From Candidatus Latescibacterota bacterium (GTDB lineage: Bacteria > Latescibacterota > UBA2968), in NCBI GenBank assembly GCA_038279365.1, contig JAYODI010000013.1, positions 1 to 64,000 of the forward strand: 64,000 nt of DNA, given 5' to 3'. Shown piece by piece: positions 1 to 29,411 of this stretch (position 1 is the stretch's first letter; every line of letters begins with the position of its first letter). Under the pieces are notes generated by a model. That model was not told the origin of the DNA and did no database searches. It was given only the letters and a program-made list of their open reading frames with translations. The position numbers and the translations under genes were made by a program.

Positions 1-226
1 CAATCGTTTGTGGTCTGATGCCACGAATGACCGCCAAAGCTTCCACCCCACTTATCCCTGGCATACGAATGTCTAATGTAATCAAATCATAATCGATTAA
101 AATGGCTTTTCCAATGGCATCTTGCCCCGAAGACACCACATCTACTTGTTCACATCCATACAAACGCGCACCTTCAGCCAAAATCTCCGCAGCTTCTGGC
201 ATATCATCTACAATCAAAACCTTCAT
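1..226 (-). CDS. Response regulator receiver domain protein (5' part; continues off left edge)
   Basis: Not in the ORF track. Manual translation from ATG at 226: MKVLIVDDMPEAAEILAEGARLYGCEQVDVVSSGQDAIGKAILIDYDLITLDIRMPGISGVEALAVIRG. Shows the CheY-like VLIVDD and D-x-x-MP motifs; GAGG upstream. Confidence 0.9.
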   Translation of the reverse strand, partial: MKVLIVDDMPEAAEILAEGARLYGCEQVDVVSSGQDAIGKAILIDYDLITLDIRMPGISGVEALAVIRGIRPQTI

Positions 227-309
227 CAAAACCTCAAAGAGCTTATATGGTAATCACCCCCGGCAGGAATGACGGGTTTAAACTATAAGAATACTGACCT
301 TGGAGCAAT

Positions 310-347
310 AAAAAAGACGTCAGTCCGATGGGTCGAAGCTGACGTCT
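310..347 (-). terminator. Intrinsic terminator
   Basis: AGACGTCAG/CTGACGTCT stem (347-339 with 323-315), extendable by UUCGA/UCGGA, followed by a U-run on the minus strand. Confidence 0.8.
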
Positions 348-378
348 GGTAAGGATAGTAGCGATGCCGAATCGCTAT
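310..378 (-). ncRNA. Candidate small RNA (~70 nt: hairpin, single-stranded seed, terminator)
   Basis: Begins just after a sigma28-like promoter. 7-bp hairpin UAGCGAU/AUCGCUA, unpaired CUAUCCUUACC, then the terminator. Confidence 0.45.
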
Positions 379-383
379 TGTAT

Positions 384-411
384 GTATCGGTTTCTGAGGC
401 CTCAATCTTGA
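384..411 (-). promoter_or_regulatory. Sigma28 (FliA/SigD)-like promoter
   Basis: Minus strand TCAA-N16-ACCGATAC versus consensus TAAA-N15/16-GCCGATAA; same geometry as the site at 19103. Confidence 0.45.
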
Positions 412-18982: not shown

Positions 18983-19102
18983 TAAAATGGCTAAGTGGTA
19001 AAAAACACCCATTCTCCGCCACACACCATTCAACCTAAGTCATTATATAATAAATACATGTCATTTATTTTAAAAAAATATTAAAAAAAAGTAAAAAAAT
19101 AC

Positions 19103-19130
19103 TAAAGATACCTGCCCTATGTGCCGATCT
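19103..19130 (+). promoter_or_regulatory. Sigma28 (FliA/SigD)-like promoter
   Basis: TAAA-N16-GCCGATCT preceded by an A-rich UP-like tract. Confidence 0.6.
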
Positions 19131-19399
19131 ATAGAGATACAGGGGTTATATACCTTGCGCGATGCCGACGCGAAGAAGCACATATCCACCCAATTACGAT
19201 GGGTCATTCCGATGCACCGACAACCGATGTCGAGACTCCAGTCGGATCTGTCTAAACTGTTTTCTCATTTACTCGAAGAAGACATTGTGCTGTCTCCTTA
19301 TCAAGCACACCAGATTGCCTCACAAGTGACTCTCACGTATCACACGTTGGATTTGGAAACAAATCCAAACACTCCCAACGGGAAACAAGGATAGCCGTT

Positions 19400-19705
19400 A
19401 TGCCTACAGGAATCAGTCAAACCGCCGTTAACCCAGCTGCATTGACCCCACGCCCAGCAACGCCTCCGCGTGAACCGTCAACACCAACGGCAACAAGCAC
19501 AGAAAATGCCCAAGCGACTTTGGCCACAGGCAGTCAAGATGTGGTTCGGGCACCAGAACCAGCAGCCGGTAGCCAGGGTGCTGAAAACAATACCAATGCA
19601 AATGCTGGCCAAAACGGGCAAGCCGCATCTGCTGGTAACCAACCCGTAAGGTTGGAACAAGAAGTCAACCGTGGTTTGGGCGGAAACGTCGATATCACGG
19701 CCTAA
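19400..19705 (+). CDS. Hypothetical low-complexity protein with a C-terminal GLGGNVDITA motif (YjfB/motility-protein-like terminus)
   Basis: RBS AAGGA; P/T/A/N/Q-rich body; terminal G-x-x-[VI]-D-[IL]-x-A. Confidence 0.7.
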   Translation: MPTGISQTAVNPAALTPRPATPPREPSTPTATSTENAQATLATGSQDVVRAPEPAAGSQGAENNTNANAGQNGQAASAGNQPVRLEQEVNRGLGGNVDITA

Positions 19706-19826
19706 GAAAACCTCGCGGAATCTGCCACAATCCTACGCGGACGGGTTATGATCAGAGGGTTTTCTAAATTGTATGACTCAGCTCGTATCGTCGATAAAAG
19801 TGTTCACGTTTGGTTAGGATAGAACC

Positions 19827-20870
19827 ATGCCGATCTTTACCTCGCGGTTTTCTTCCGAGCGATCGCTGGTGGGCAGTATTGCAACCAGTCGCATCCAGGA
19901 AAGCAAAGATGCCGAATCTAAAGACAAAAACCGCCGAACAGACAGTGCAAACTCACGTACTTCTCAAAAGGCAACAACAGATCGTTTAGAAATCACCAAC
20001 AATCAGCAAGACGCATTTGCTGCCTTGTTTCGATCTTCTGAAAAAACTGTTGATGCACGTGCAGATAAAAGTGCGGCCGACGCACAAGTTGCCCGACAAC
20101 TTACTCTGCGCAAAGCCTCACAAGAAACCGTGGTTGCACGCTCCAACCTCAGTTCTTCTCCACAAGAACTTCCAATTGGTGTCTCTGCAAGTAATAACAC
20201 GCAGAGCGCATCCATCGCGCAACAAACCACAATTACAAAAGAAAATTTTAGTGCCTTACAAAGCGCTTTAACCAACCGTCTGGACACATTGGTTAAACAG
20301 CTCAACAATGTACGTGCTCAGCAATCTGTAAGGGCCAATGCCAAAGAGAACACCACGGCCGCACAAAATGCCACGCCGGAATCTTTGGATGCGCTGACCC
20401 AAAGTGTCGCACAACCGACACCATCAACGCCAACCTCAATCAGGGACGATGAGGTGGCCGTTGACCCCACCGCGCGACTGGAAGCACGCATTGAAAAACT
20501 GCGTGACAAAAAAGTGGAATTGGCTTCCGCATTTGTACCGCCCGCACCGCCGGAAGCAGAAGAACAAAAGGCAGAACTGCGCACCAATTTGCAGGCCATT
20601 TCTACGGGATTGCAAAACGATGCCGCCATAGAAAAACAACGCAATGCTTCAGAAACACAACGCAATGCAGATGTTGTCGCAAAACGCGAACAACGCCAAA
20701 CCATTCGAGAAAACCAATCTGAAATTTCCAATTTGCAAGTCAGTCGACGACAACTGGATCAGGAAGCACAACGCACCGATCAAGCCATTCGTCAACTACA
20801 AAATGAAACAGCGCGCTTAAAAAATGGTGCAACGTCGTCAGGGACAGCACTCAACATTTTGGCGCAGTAG
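19827..20870 (+). CDS. Hypothetical coiled-coil, low-complexity protein (FlxA-like C-terminus)
   Basis: 347 aa with RBS AGGA; S/T/A/Q-rich with heptad segments; ends GTALNILAQ. Confidence 0.8.
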   Translation: MPIFTSRFSSERSLVGSIATSRIQESKDAESKDKNRRTDSANSRTSQKATTDRLEITNNQQDAFAALFRSSEKTVDARADKSAADAQVARQLTLRKASQETVVARSNLSSSPQELPIGVSASNNTQSASIAQQTTITKENFSALQSALTNRLDTLVKQLNNVRAQQSVRANAKENTTAAQNATPESLDALTQSVAQPTPSTPTSIRDDEVAVDPTARLEARIEKLRDKKVELASAFVPPAPPEAEEQKAELRTNLQAISTGLQNDAAIEKQRNASETQRNADVVAKREQRQTIRENQSEISNLQVSRRQLDQEAQRTDQAIRQLQNETARLKNGATSSGTALNILAQ

Positions 20871-20974
20871 TAAATAGGTTCTGAAGCCTACCTATTCCAA
20901 GTGGCTTCAGATGATGTGACATCGGAGTGGCGCATCATCACTTGTACCACTCGCCCAGTGGTGCCGATTGGTCA

Positions 20975-21008
20975 GCCCCTCTTCCCTATCATTGGGAAGG
21001 GGGGTTTT
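20975..21008 (+). terminator. Intrinsic terminator, last of four consecutive hairpins
   Basis: CCCCTCTTCCC/GGGAAGGGGGG stem followed by TTTT. Confidence 0.7.
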
Positions 21009-21070
21009 CGGTTTGTATCTTAACTCTTTCTACTCAAAACAGCTGATATCTTATCTGGACGTCTTATCAC

Positions 21071-21099
21071 TTGCCTTGTTTTTTTTCATATGCTATATT
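21071..21099 (+). promoter_or_regulatory. Sigma70-type promoter of the ArsR gene
   Basis: TTGCCT-N17-TATATT with TG extension. Confidence 0.6.
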
Positions 21100-21143
21100 C
21101 GGGCACATTTGATATTTCAGTTATAATTTTAGAGGAACAAACT

Positions 21144-23902: not shown

Positions 23903-24778
23903 GTGATTGGATTGGCAAGACTAACGGCATCATCTAATGACGCAAAAGATGCGTTGCATCGCTACCTTGAAGATGTGGCTTCATCACAGCCATTGTCATC
24001 AAAAGAAGAAGTGGCCCTTGCACAGCGCATCAAAAAAGGAGACCTCAAAGCACGTGCAACACTCGTGGAGGCCAATCTGCGATTTGTCATTACCGTTGCG
24101 CGCGATTACCAAAACCAAGGCGTTCCATTGGTAGATCTGATCAGTTCTGGCAACTTGGGGCTTATCACCGCTGCCGAACGCTTTGACGAAACCAAAGGCT
24201 TCAAGTTTATCTCCTATGCCGTGTGGTGGATTCGCCAATCTATTTTACAAACCCTGGCCGAACATTCGCGCATTGTGCGCCTTCCCCTTAATCGAGTGGA
24301 TCTTTTACGGCGCATTTCTCGCTACACCAACACCCGCCAACAAGAAACCACCATTCGCCCACAAGAAGAAGAAATTGCCGACGAATTGGGGCTTACCGTC
24401 GAACAGGTGATGGACACCCTTGCAAGTGGGCAACGCATTTTATCGTTGGATGCCACATTGGGTGAAGGCGAAGACAACAGCCTTTTGGAAATTATGCCCG
24501 ATGCCACACAAGAATCGCCAGATACAATGGCGATGCGAAATTCCTTGGAGCACGAAATTGAATCGGCACTGGAAACATTAGACGAACGTGAACAACAAGT
24601 CATTCGCCTGTATTTTGGAATTGGTGGCAACCGAGAGTTGACACTCGAAGAAATTGGCTCACAGTTTCGCCTCACCCGAGAGCGTGTTCGCCAAATCAAA
24701 GAAAAAGCCCTGCGCAAACTTCGGCATCCTACACGGGGAAGAAAATTGATGCCGTATGCAGAGGAAGAAGGTGCTTAA
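23903..24778 (+). CDS. RNA polymerase sigma factor, RpoD/SigA family (short, lacks region 1.1)
   Basis: ANLRFV, GFKFISYAVWWIRQ, TLEEIG, TRERVRQI. Start may be TTG 23912. Confidence 0.95.
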   Translation: MIGLARLTASSNDAKDALHRYLEDVASSQPLSSKEEVALAQRIKKGDLKARATLVEANLRFVITVARDYQNQGVPLVDLISSGNLGLITAAERFDETKGFKFISYAVWWIRQSILQTLAEHSRIVRLPLNRVDLLRRISRYTNTRQQETTIRPQEEEIADELGLTVEQVMDTLASGQRILSLDATLGEGEDNSLLEIMPDATQESPDTMAMRNSLEHEIESALETLDEREQQVIRLYFGIGGNRELTLEEIGSQFRLTRERVRQIKEKALRKLRHPTRGRKLMPYAEEEGA

Positions 24779-27341: not shown

Positions 27342-29411
27342 TTGAGGAACACAAGCCCGTCAAGGCATAGGATCAGGTCAAATAATACTGGCATAAAACG
27401 ACAGATTTCATTATGTTGGCGCGTCACTTTTAAAGACCCATTGCGAAAGAACACATACTTGTTAAATAAAAATGTCATCACCTTCTTTCAACGCGTGTCA
27501 CTTTGCTTGACGGTTATCTATGGCTTGGGTTGCTTGCCATCAGACCCAACAAATCAACCCGACCAGAAACAGGCCCAAGAAAAATCTGCAACAGAAACAC
27601 CCCATCACGCACCCGTACCCCAAACCATTGACCCACAAATATTATTAAATCGAAACTTTGGCGAAGCACCATTATTAACAGAACAAGCCAATAAGGGCAA
27701 CATTCTTCAAGTCGCCCAGCGCTTACCAGAAAACCCCCTTGTGGTGGTGCCTCTTGAAGCCATTGGTCAATATGGTGGTGCCATTCAGCGCGGTTTAACG
27801 GGCGATATTGCTCAGTGGCCAGGTATTGCAAAATGTATGGCAGAAAACCTATTGGCATTTAAACGGCCAATGGGAGATGGCATTGAACCCAATCTGGCAG
27901 AACATTATGAATTTCAAGATGATGGCAGAATCGCCATCCTGCATTTTAGAAAAGGCGTTCGTTGGTCAGATGGGCACCCCTTTACGGTAGATGATGTCCT
28001 TTTTTATTACAATGACATGCTCTTTAATGAGAATGCCCGCTCAAGTGATATCCCAACCCCACCACCGGCTTGGCTGGCAGATGGCAAACCCATTCTACTC
28101 GAAAAAATAGACGATTATACCCTGCGCATTCGCTCAACCAAACCCTTGGGCCGGTTGCGCGAAACATTGGCCTCTCCAAGTGATTTTGCTGCACCCAAAC
28201 ATTATTGGAAACAGTTTCACCCCAAGTATACACCTGGTGCAGATTATGGCGAATTTCGCCAAAACACCACACGCGCCAAAATGCTGATGACACCTGGCAT
28301 TCCCCGTTTGTCGGCGTGGGTTGCCAAAGATTGGATACGCGGTCAACGTATCGTTTATGAACGAAACCCTTATTATTGGAAAATAGACACGGCAGGCAAC
28401 CAACTGCCCTATGCCGATCAAATCGTATTTAGTGTTATTGCAGACACACAAGTGATCTTGCTCAAATTTATGAATGGCGAAATTGACCTTTTTGGACGCT
28501 ATTCCGATGTGAACATGTTTCACTCGCTCAAGTTAGAAGAGAAAAAAGGCGCTTTCAAAATTGTCATTTCTGGCCCCAATTCTGGCCCATCGTTTTATCT
28601 CAACTGGGATGTTGAAAAACCCGCACTCAGAGAAGCCTTTCGAAACAAAAATGTGCGCATTGCCCTCTCCCATGCCATCAACCGTGAAGAGGTCAACCAA
28701 ATTCTTTACAAAGGTTTCCTCGAACCATCGGGCTATTCGTTTTTGCCAGGCAATCCTTATTTCTCACAAGAAAACTATCAAAAATACACCGAATACGATC
28801 CCGTTTTGGCCAACCGTCTATTAGACGAAGAAGGATACAGAGACACCGACGGAGATGGCATACGCGAGCTCAAAGATGGCTCACCCTTTCAAGTGATCAT
28901 CGACGTTTCTGGCCGATCTTCCATTTCGGATATTTGTGAACTCGTTACAGATCATTGGGCAAAAATAGGCATCAAAGTACATACCTATGTGGCTATGCGA
29001 GACATCATTTGGCCACGCCGTTTTAATGGTGAATTTGAAATTCATCAATGGGGGCTCGAAGGGCCAGGTGATCCATTAGACAGACTGGACGATTGGGCCA
29101 TCACGGGCGCCAACACTCCCTTTTGGCACCGAAACGCATCGAAGGAAACACAACCGTGGTTCCAAGAAGCCACAGACCTCATGATCAAAGCAACAACCAC
29201 CGTTGACACGGCCCTTGTACGCACCTATATGGAACGGGCCAGTAGCTTGCATTCAGATAATGTGCCCGTTATCACCATTGGTTCAATCTATCGCATTTGG
29301 GGCAAAAGCACGCGCTTGGGCAATGTGCCTGATGACATCAGTTTTTTAAGTGTTCACGGCGCATGGGGCCGCCCCATATTTCACGAACAAATTTTTGTTA
29401 AGCGCAAATAA
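27342..29411 (+). CDS. ABC transporter substrate-binding lipoprotein (family 5), paralog 1
   Basis: Lipobox LGC, RLPENP, GVRWSDGHPFT, ERNPYYWKID..GNQLPY. Start likely around 27459. Confidence 0.9.
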   Translation: MRNTSPSRHRIRSNNTGIKRQISLCWRVTFKDPLRKNTYLLNKNVITFFQRVSLCLTVIYGLGCLPSDPTNQPDQKQAQEKSATETPHHAPVPQTIDPQILLNRNFGEAPLLTEQANKGNILQVAQRLPENPLVVVPLEAIGQYGGAIQRGLTGDIAQWPGIAKCMAENLLAFKRPMGDGIEPNLAEHYEFQDDGRIAILHFRKGVRWSDGHPFTVDDVLFYYNDMLFNENARSSDIPTPPPAWLADGKPILLEKIDDYTLRIRSTKPLGRLRETLASPSDFAAPKHYWKQFHPKYTPGADYGEFRQNTTRAKMLMTPGIPRLSAWVAKDWIRGQRIVYERNPYYWKIDTAGNQLPYADQIVFSVIADTQVILLKFMNGEIDLFGRYSDVNMFHSLKLEEKKGAFKIVISGPNSGPSFYLNWDVEKPALREAFRNKNVRIALSHAINREEVNQILYKGFLEPSGYSFLPGNPYFSQENYQKYTEYDPVLANRLLDEEGYRDTDGDGIRELKDGSPFQVIIDVSGRSSISDICELVTDHWAKIGIKVHTYVAMRDIIWPRRFNGEFEIHQWGLEGPGDPLDRLDDWAITGANTPFWHRNASKETQPWFQEATDLMIKATTTVDTALVRTYMERASSLHSDNVPVITIGSIYRIWGKSTRLGNVPDDISFLSVHGAWGRPIFHEQIFVKRK

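Follow-up and report, generated by a model that had tools for sequence, protein, structure and literature searches.

The sequence analyzed here (the window) is a stretch of 64,000 nucleotides from a Candidatus Latescibacterota bacterium (assembly GCA_038279365.1, contig JAYODI010000013.1; bases 1-64000 of contig C96 of genome G000 in our labels), whose assembly of 6.03 Mb in 199 contigs is 98.5% complete. Two of its loci are considered: a candidate small RNA (sRNA) gene on the minus strand near the start of the window and, on the plus strand 19 kb away, an operon of three open reading frames (ORF1, ORF2, and ORF3), the last of which encodes a protein of an orphan family (Table 1). Relatives were taken from up to 53 genomes of one Latescibacterota order (labeled G001 and so on), with families f1 and f2 and genera g1, g5, and g7.

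Table 1. Features of the sRNA locus and of the ORF3 operon in the window (MFE, minimum free energy; SD, Shine-Dalgarno sequence; UTR, untranslated region; PDB, Protein Data Bank)
Feature	Position	Strand	Basis or remark
sRNA, about 68 nt	310..378	-	MFE fold and consensus fold of 9 sequences
sRNA sigma-28-type promoter, TCAAG-N15-ACCGATAC	384..411 (411->384)	-	Same architecture in homologs
sRNA hairpin 1, AGCGAU-UCGGC-AUCGCU, loop listed as UUCGGCA	376->360	-	MFE fold
sRNA linker CUACUAUCCUUACCA, predicted unpaired	361->347	-	MFE fold
sRNA terminator stem-loop, GACGUCAG/CUUCGACCCAUCGGA/CUGACGUC	346->316	-	Loop is CUUCGACCCAUCGGA
sRNA U6 tract after terminator stem	315->310	-	Intrinsic terminator end
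Operon sigma-28-type promoter, TAAAG-N15-GCCGATCT	19103..19130	+	Promoter pattern
Leader hairpin, 4 bp predicted, 7-nt loop AUGCCGA (19162-19168)	19158..19172	+	Complementary to sRNA hairpin-1 loop
ORF1 start region (CGAUGGGUC ... UCCGAUG)	19197..19214	+	Complementary to sRNA terminator loop GACCCAUCGGA, 9 bp in G000
ORF1, 60 amino acids, earlier taken as leader	19212..19394	+	Homologous ORFs in relatives; no family assigned
ORF2 start region	19387..19404	+	Shuffles 1/300 in G000, 4/300 in G002, 2/300 in G041, 0/300 in G007
ORF2, 101 amino acids, no known family	19400..19705	+	Family scans
ORF3 start region, -21 to +8	19806..19834	+	Main conserved site of predicted pairing, with the 5' 37 nt of the sRNA; 26 bp and -35.0 kcal/mol in G000
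ORF3, 347 amino acids, orphan family	19827..20870	+	Family, PDB, Atlas, and AlphaFold comparisons
Structured 3' UTR and operon terminator	20871..21008	+	34 predicted pairs, 6 with changes on both sides (6 aligned sequences)

Comparison of relatives indicates that a genuine RNA gene, conserved and equipped with a promoter and terminator of its own, lies on the minus strand from 378 to 310. When the 271-nt gap around the sRNA was compared by BLAST with 41 related genomes, nine matched, and only across the part corresponding to about 297-412 of the window; the flanks had diverged. A covariance model built from 9 sequences located the sRNA in 13 of the 53 genomes of the order. Among these 13 sequences, 95.3% of the cells in the 20 pairs hold standard pairs (28 to 50% in slid controls), and six pairs are changed on both sides; the terminator hairpin and its U6 tract are conserved with covariation. 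The surrounding genes vary: either of two genes stands upstream, and a response regulator follows in 6/13. The sRNA can therefore be regarded as its own transcription unit. In G000, the upstream minus-strand neighbor is a 1207-amino-acid ORF that ends at 494 and that by eye we take to be an indolepyruvate:ferredoxin oxidoreductase; a receiver-domain (CheY-like response-regulator) gene (2..229, minus strand) starts about 80 nt past the terminator. Rfam 15 gave no match at gathering score in the window and none at an E value of ≤1 for 1-2000 and 19000-21100.

The RNA has a narrow distribution. In an even sample of 151 genomes of the phylum, it was found in 11, all in families f1 and f2, while the covariance model found it in none of the 102 genomes from 12 other families. 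A strict pattern run over the genomes of 185,579 species returned 10 records, all uncultured metagenome-assembled genomes (MAGs), six of them titled Candidatus Latescibacterota and two "Gemmatimonadetes bacterium."

The sRNA and the operon carry promoters of one type. The sigma-28 consensus is TAAA-N15-GCCGATAA. T[AC]AAG-N15-NCCGAT precedes 10 of the 13 sRNA homologs, and a form with N14 precedes an eleventh (G042); in all 11 the box ends 6 to 8 nt ahead of the start of the RNA model. The remaining two have a CAAAG variant (G009) or no promoter box (G029). Exactly one TAAAG-N15-GCCGAT lies 416 to 842 nt upstream of the ORF3 start in each of 13 operons. A loose sigma-28 pattern matched 16 times in G000 and 3 times in a reversed control, and one match, TAAAG-N15-GCCGATAA, precedes a 396-amino-acid ORF with the N terminus MPLRVNTNIPALNTRR, which by eye we take to be flagellin. 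The original prediction, made from the window alone, had placed a minus-strand sRNA at 310-378 and sigma-28-like promoters before it and before the operon. Both points hold: promoter and terminator are present and conserved in relatives, and both promoters are of the type found before the flagellin gene.

The sigma factor itself, FliA (TIGR02479), scored over the cutoff in 12 of the 53 genomes, G000 included (C48:13352-14020), and in 11 of the 13 with the sRNA; of the other two, G003 has a partial match (173 bits) and G029 none. None of the 36 genomes of genera g5 (21) and g7 (15) has FliA over the cutoff, the sRNA, or the paralog of ORF3 described below. These genomes are kin and not independent, so the pattern is one of co-occurrence and not a test. 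By its promoter, by the presence of FliA, and by the conserved complementarity to target mRNAs described below, the sRNA fits the class of sigma-28-dependent base-pairing RNAs, and its expression may depend on FliA.

Pairing between the two loci had been proposed from four sequence stretches, all of which read as described. The plus strand at 347-370, TGGTAAGGATAGTAGCGATGCCGA, resembles the ORF3 initiation region at 19811-19833, TGGTTAGGATAGAACCATGCCGA (11/12 plus 7/7, with spacers of 5 and 4 nt, respectively), and the ORF2 initiation region at 19387-19404, AAGGATAGCCGTTATGCC (8/8 plus 5/5, with identical spacing). In addition, GCGATGCCGA occurs at 361-370 and again at 19159-19168; it is weak evidence by itself because the assembly holds 43 copies. 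Had AGGATAG-N4-5-ATGCC been common among the starts of this genome, the resemblance would mean little. On both strands of the 6.03-Mb assembly there are 175 copies of AGGATAG and 18 of AGGATAG-N4-5-ATG, and three of AGGATAG-N4-5-ATGCC, which are the sites at 347, 19387, and 19811. This motif was defined from the three sites, and the count thus shows rarity and not significance. The above-chance signal is provided by relatives and by shuffled sequences, as follows.

In all 11 genomes with both elements, which represent 8 genera, the first ~37 nt of the sRNA are complementary to ORF3 from -20/-21 to +4/+8 over 21 to 27 bp (1 to 4 of them G.U), with duplex energies of -24.8 to -42.1 kcal/mol. The complementarity predicted between the sRNA and the initiation region (SD and AUG) at 19827 thus holds throughout. 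Significance was assessed with dinucleotide shuffles of the target site (300 per genome; 200 for the first 130 nt of the leader), and in 10 of the 11 genomes no shuffle reached the observed energy. The duplex is longer than seen earlier: upstream, ACGUUUGGU pairs with ACCAGACGU, which takes in the 5' arm of the terminator. Differences among genomes are wobble compatible, as in GGGUAG with CUGUCC and in ACGUUUGGU with ACCAGACGU, ACCGAACGU, or ACCGGACGU; in the upstream helix, U faces A or G. Genus g1 has a one-base insertion at the same place in both sRNA and ORF3 site. The sRNA and the operon lie 18 to 24 kb apart on opposite strands in all seven genomes that carry them on one contig (G000, G003, G008, G011, G036, G041, and G042).

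To place these sites among all starts of G000, 5,507 crude gene calls giving 8,259 start regions were scored with a home-made IntaRNA-like dynamic program that sums hybridization energy and the opening energies of both RNAs. First of the 8,259, at -13.5 kcal/mol, was C134:243, with the start region UAAGGACGAGUAGCGAUGCC. This gene encodes 374 amino acids beginning MPVFVSRFSS and belongs to the ORF3 family, which numbers exactly two in G000; the scan was blind to paralogy. The chance that the sole paralog tops the list is of the order of one in several thousand. Among the sites of the window, the leader site ranked 48th (-8.0 kcal/mol), ORF2 82nd (-7.25 kcal/mol), and ORF3 177th (-6.2 kcal/mol), that is, in the top 0.6 to 2% and not at the top. 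ORF1 was 922nd (its scan window was centered at 19213, one base off the true 19212), and flagellin was 2424th. In the ranking envisaged earlier as a check, the genes at 19827 and 19400 and flagellin are thus not at the top. The target list changes: the gene at 19827 stays, whereas the strongest predicted target in G000 lies on another contig, outside the window. Two other scores were set aside: raw RNAduplex ranking, dominated by G/U-rich internal sites with long wobble duplexes (ORF2 ranked 2724/31,482 and 2038/8,259), and a sum of suboptimal duplex and opening energies, replaced by the IntaRNA-like program, which had given only -2.0 kcal/mol for the full ORF3 duplex.

The paralog was found in 13 of the 53 genomes of the order, in the same FliA-bearing genera. 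Tested against the cognate sRNA, its start region was matched by 0/300 shuffles in five of nine genomes and by ≤3/300 in two more. Its promoter is sigma-70-like (TTGACA-N17-TAxxTT) at 11/11 loci, and no sigma-28-type box was found at these 11 loci. In 6 of 9 genomes with the sRNA, a second site complementary to its linker is found at the 5' end of the mRNA, immediately past the -10 box. This site covaries with the linker: AAGGAUAGUAG goes with CUACUAUCCUU in G000 and G001 (GGAUAG/CUAUCC), AGGACAGUAG with CUACUGUCCU in G004 and G011 (GGACAG/CUGUCC), and AAGACAGUAG with CUACUGUUUU in G007 (AGACAG/CUGUUU). One mismatch is found in G002, and the site is missing in G008, G041, and G042. The exchanges of U-A for C-G and of G-C for A-U across sRNA and paralog mRNA are the best evidence for what would be direct pairing.

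The operon mRNA may offer further contacts upstream of ORF3. The third site of the original prediction, a hairpin loop at 19159-19168, is conserved: TG[CT]CGA occurs at predicted mRNA positions 27 to 42 in 11 of 13 operons, sometimes doubled, against 0.05 expected per 100 nt, and its partner, the hairpin-1 loop of the sRNA, is nearly invariant. For the first 130 nt of the leader, 0 to 3 of 200 shuffles matched the observed energy in 5 of 11 genomes. The stretch of 260 nt described as a leader does hold this site but, as relatives show, also encodes ORF1, a third small ORF. The terminator loop of the sRNA, GACCCAUCGGA, has its complement at the ORF1 start, in GAUGGGUC and UCCGAUG. Compensatory changes are seen in G004 and G011 (sRNA GACCCAUUG with mRNA (C)AAUGGGUC) and in G008 (sRNA GACCCAAAG with mRNA CUUUGGGUC), while pairing is broken in G003. 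In the shuffle test, energy alone does not make this site significant, and a contact of the ORF1 start region with the terminator loop is therefore rated as suggestive. The proposed target at 19400 fared worse: the ORF2 site was significant in four of the 10 genomes tested and not in the six others, so that a secondary site particular to some lineages or a chance match is the probable explanation.

These data make it probable that the sRNA is a trans-acting antisense RNA of ~68 nt, made from a sigma-28-type promoter, that pairs with and represses mRNAs of the ORF3 family. From the conserved RNA gene, its type of promoter, and the conserved and partly covarying complementarity, we infer transcription, physical pairing, and repression. 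FliA would transcribe the sRNA in flagellated members of this order. The 5' two-thirds of the sRNA (hairpin-1 loop, linker, and first bases of the terminator stem) would then pair across the SD and start codon of ORF3, in the sigma-28 operon 19 kb away, and of the paralog on C134 with its sigma-70-type promoter, helped by accessory contacts near the 5' ends of both mRNAs (the AUGCCGA loop of the leader and AGGA[U/C]AGUAG of the paralog). Cover of -21 to +8 should prevent 30S binding, which is why repression is the default reading; translation would fall and the mRNA would probably decay. Late flagellar sigma activity would in this way lower expression of the paralog and dampen or postpone that of the co-induced ORF3, which amounts to an incoherent feed-forward loop. 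No match to Hfq (PF17209) was found in the 98.5% complete G000 assembly, where control families were found; this fits antisense action through a long duplex. The sRNA does not fit two other classes, Hfq-dependent sRNAs, given the lack of a PF17209 match in G000, and cis-antisense RNAs, given the distance of the targets, 19 kb away and on another contig. A broader scheme is conceivable, though we think it doubtful. Three modules of the sRNA (hairpin-1 loop, linker, and terminator loop) would contact up to four sites on the operon mRNA (leader loop and the starts of ORF1, ORF2, and ORF3) and two on the paralog mRNA as a late-flagellar paralog switch, with the operon 3' UTR and an RNA encoded on contig C26 (see below), which bear the same motifs, as competing sponges, the whole being a self-contained, Hfq-free RNA timing circuit.

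Several observations weigh against repression of this family by the sRNA. G029 keeps the sRNA (88 bits) but lacks the promoter, FliA, ORF3, and the paralog; conversely, targets are present and the sRNA is undetected in G005 (82% complete) and G043 (80% complete). ORF3 itself reaches only -6.2 kcal/mol (177/8,259) in the accessibility-aware scan, its full duplex with the sRNA costs about 20 + 15 kcal/mol to open in G000, and in raw RNAduplex ranking, too, its site is not first (18/31,482 and 23/8,259). The gene calls behind these ranks are crude ORF heuristics. Pairing is weak in G036 at ORF3 (24/300 shuffles) and in G007 (14/300) and G008 (19/300) at the paralog start. At the ORF3 site, only one-sided changes and no double-sided change were found in the 11 genomes, and cognate and noncognate pairs score alike, the energies failing to discriminate because both partners are too conserved. 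In four metatranscriptome runs, available as assembled contigs that give no ends, strand, or level, X20 holds 305-377 within a 354-nt contig whose flanks differ, and X14, X18, and X19 take in only neighboring genes, namely 386-626 and parts of others. Finally, the complementarity could stem in part from an inverted duplication of the 5' end of a target.

Carried further, the last point would make the sRNA gene an inverted partial copy of the 5' region of the family, kept for protein binding or for termination of the upstream gene, and its complementarity a fossil. The plus strand at 347-410 does read as a start region with a 15-codon ORF behind it (frame by eye), and the one-sided changes at ORF3 and the retention of the RNA without targets in G029 count in favor of such a relic. 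It would, however, not account for the double-sided changes between linker and paralog 5' end and between terminator loop and ORF1 start, nor for differences at the ORF3 site that all run in the wobble-compatible direction, nor for a conserved promoter of its own behind two different upstream genes; we consider this origin unlikely as a full explanation. Pairing might also be real with the opposite outcome, the sRNA activating or stabilizing these mRNAs by opening an inhibitory structure at ORF3 or by protecting 5' ends. The ORF3 start is predicted to be structured (opening costs ~15 kcal/mol for -21..+18 and 5.8 kcal/mol for -15..-5), and conserved sites are found at the very 5' ends of the two mRNAs, but a duplex that covers SD and AUG in 11/11 genomes should exclude the ribosome anyway, and activation appears distinctly improbable.

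Two alternatives remain. Instead of a free sRNA, the element could be a leader or attenuator 5' of the gene for the CheY-like response regulator (2..229, minus strand), given that this gene begins ~80 nt past the terminator in G000, that a similar one follows in 6/13 genomes, and that sigma-28 regulons often take in chemotaxis genes. Yet the downstream gene is another one or absent in 7/13 genomes, a separate promoter-like motif (TTGACC...TACCTT) stands between terminator and gene in G041, G042, G029, and G007, and complementarity of ~27 bp to distant start regions would be left unexplained; the leader interpretation is highly unlikely and was largely rejected. A resemblance due to chance or to SD sequences, or a CsrA-related element, was the caveat of the original prediction. 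Many starts contain AGGA and ATG, mid-ranking matches are numerous with an anti-SD linker, and G000 encodes CsrA. Against chance, the full motif occurs at only three sites of the genome, and 21 to 27 bp of complementarity are conserved across 8 genera. As for CsrA, RNAs that sequester it (CsrB/RsmZ type) have several GGA motifs in hairpin loops, whereas the sRNA carries just one GGA, located in its terminator loop and lost in G003, G004, G008, and G011, and is thus not a CsrA sponge. Both forms of this explanation are extremely improbable and largely refuted.

Antisense repression as proposed here would have counterparts in other phyla. In E. coli, the sigma-28-dependent sRNAs called UhpU, MotR, FliX, and FlgO have been described; MotR and FliX form pairs inside coding sequences, and the targets of UhpU likely number in the hundreds (Melamed et al., eLife 2023, PMC10578931). 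Like them, the Latescibacterota sRNA is linked to the flagellar sigma factor (here by its promoter), is predicted to act by base pairing, and would add a posttranscriptional layer to the flagellar cascade. In contrast with those UTR-derived, Hfq-linked RNAs, it is free-standing, has a promoter of its own, and occurs in a genome in which no Hfq was found, and its ~27-bp complementarity is centered on SD and AUG and apparently dedicated to one orphan family; there is no sequence or Rfam relation. In Campylobacter jejuni, CJnc170 (FlmR) is FliA dependent, and CJnc230 (FlmE) directly represses translation of its target mRNAs (Konig et al., Nat Commun 2024, PMC11187230). CJnc170 offers a parallel, beyond the enterobacteria, for the tuning of late flagellar expression by a FliA-dependent sRNA. 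The Campylobacter RNAs belong to another phylum, show no homology, act on flgM and Cj1387c rather than on an uncharacterized family, and were tested at the bench, while the present sRNA is known from comparison of sequences. CjNC1 and CjNC4, sigma-28-dependent noncoding RNA (ncRNA) paralogs of thermophilic Campylobacter, have sigma-54-dependent flagellar genes as predicted targets (PLoS One 2015, PMC4626219). They too are conserved, sigma-28-promoted ncRNAs with targets predicted by cross-species complementarity; here, by contrast, one target is under the same type of sigma factor and the other under a sigma-70-like promoter. The sigma-28 feed-forward circuit had been put forward as undescribed. 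Its shared promoter type and conserved complementarity stand, whereas repression is predicted and sigma-28-dependent sRNA circuits are known from E. coli and Campylobacter; what is new is this RNA family and its target set.

To our knowledge, the Latescibacterota have no cultured representative, and one limited search of the literature on their flagella returned genomic surveys and no regulatory RNA work. Genome sequences suffice to read off the sRNA, its promoter class, its targets, and the covarying contacts. They offer a concrete candidate for a posttranscriptional layer in the flagellar cascade of this phylum, in which an orphan family with two differently promoted paralogs is predicted to be under one sRNA, and the system is small enough to be rebuilt in E. 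coli reporters.

A link of the ORF3 family to late flagellar assembly or to motility is probable. The N terminus of ORF3 is invariant (MPIFxSRFS..RSL.G), the middle is variable and disordered, and the C-terminal ~110 residues are conserved. AlphaFold predicts ~78 disordered N-terminal residues, long helices, and a C-terminal helix of ~100 residues, with a predicted local distance difference test (pLDDT) score of >90 at about 250-330. A search among 1.84 billion sequences gave 59 representatives at an E value of ≤0.001; ORF3 matched no Pfam family and no PDB sequence at an E value of <0.05, and its Atlas neighbors below 0.9 are all hypothetical. The idea that the family is an anti-sigma-28 factor was dropped because canonical FlgM-domain ORFs are present. 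In G003 (L016), ORF3 is split into a 103-amino-acid frame and, in a different one, the C-terminal domain; the FliA match of this genome is partial. Homologs of ORF1, with 37 to 60 amino acids, were found by motif search in 7 of 13 operons and by eye also in G003; by eye, ORF1 has an in-frame stop in G008 (L015) and G011 (L018). The split ORF3 and the ORF1 stops in G003, G008, and G011 reflect either decay of the system or MAG errors.

Further promoters and sigma factors were noted around these genes. An extended promoter-like motif, TTGAC[AC]C(C)CTGTTTT..AA..TTAC[CT]TT, precedes the paralog at 11/11 loci (C134:100-130 in G000) and also the response-regulator gene beside the sRNA in G041, G042, G029, and G007 (L022, L024, L030, and L032); it may be the mark of a common regulator. 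About 3 kb downstream of the operon, 23903-24778 (plus strand) encodes a 291-amino-acid sigma-70-family factor with regions 1.2, 2, 3, and 4 that scores 132 bits to FliA/WhiG, under the cutoff. A sub-cutoff FliA/WhiG match lies ~1 to 10 kb from ORF3 on the same contig in G002, G003, G004, G007, G008, G011, G036, G041, and G042.

Downstream of ORF3, the structured 3' UTR, with several hairpins and the terminator, is conserved in about 10 relatives. Its loop CAUCGGAGUGGCG resembles the terminator loop and 3' arm of the sRNA, and CGAUUGGUCAG is similar to the start region of ORF1; this UTR could be the source of a 3'-UTR-derived RNA or a competitor for sRNA contacts. On contig C26, 28471-28720 (plus strand; L054) holds a sigma-28-type promoter and a terminated RNA of ~215 nt without a match in Rfam, with a convergent promoter at 28796 (minus strand). 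This RNA looks like a truncated copy of the operon, in which a leader-like AAGCAC..ACCCAUUGGGUCGAUUCGG is followed by ACGUUUGGUCAG fused to the terminator, and it is confined to the genus (G001 and G002, 76 to 77% identity). A further sigma-28-like box, TCAAGATTG..ACCGATAA, is found at C13:12947 (plus strand), its -35 half nearly identical to that of the sRNA.

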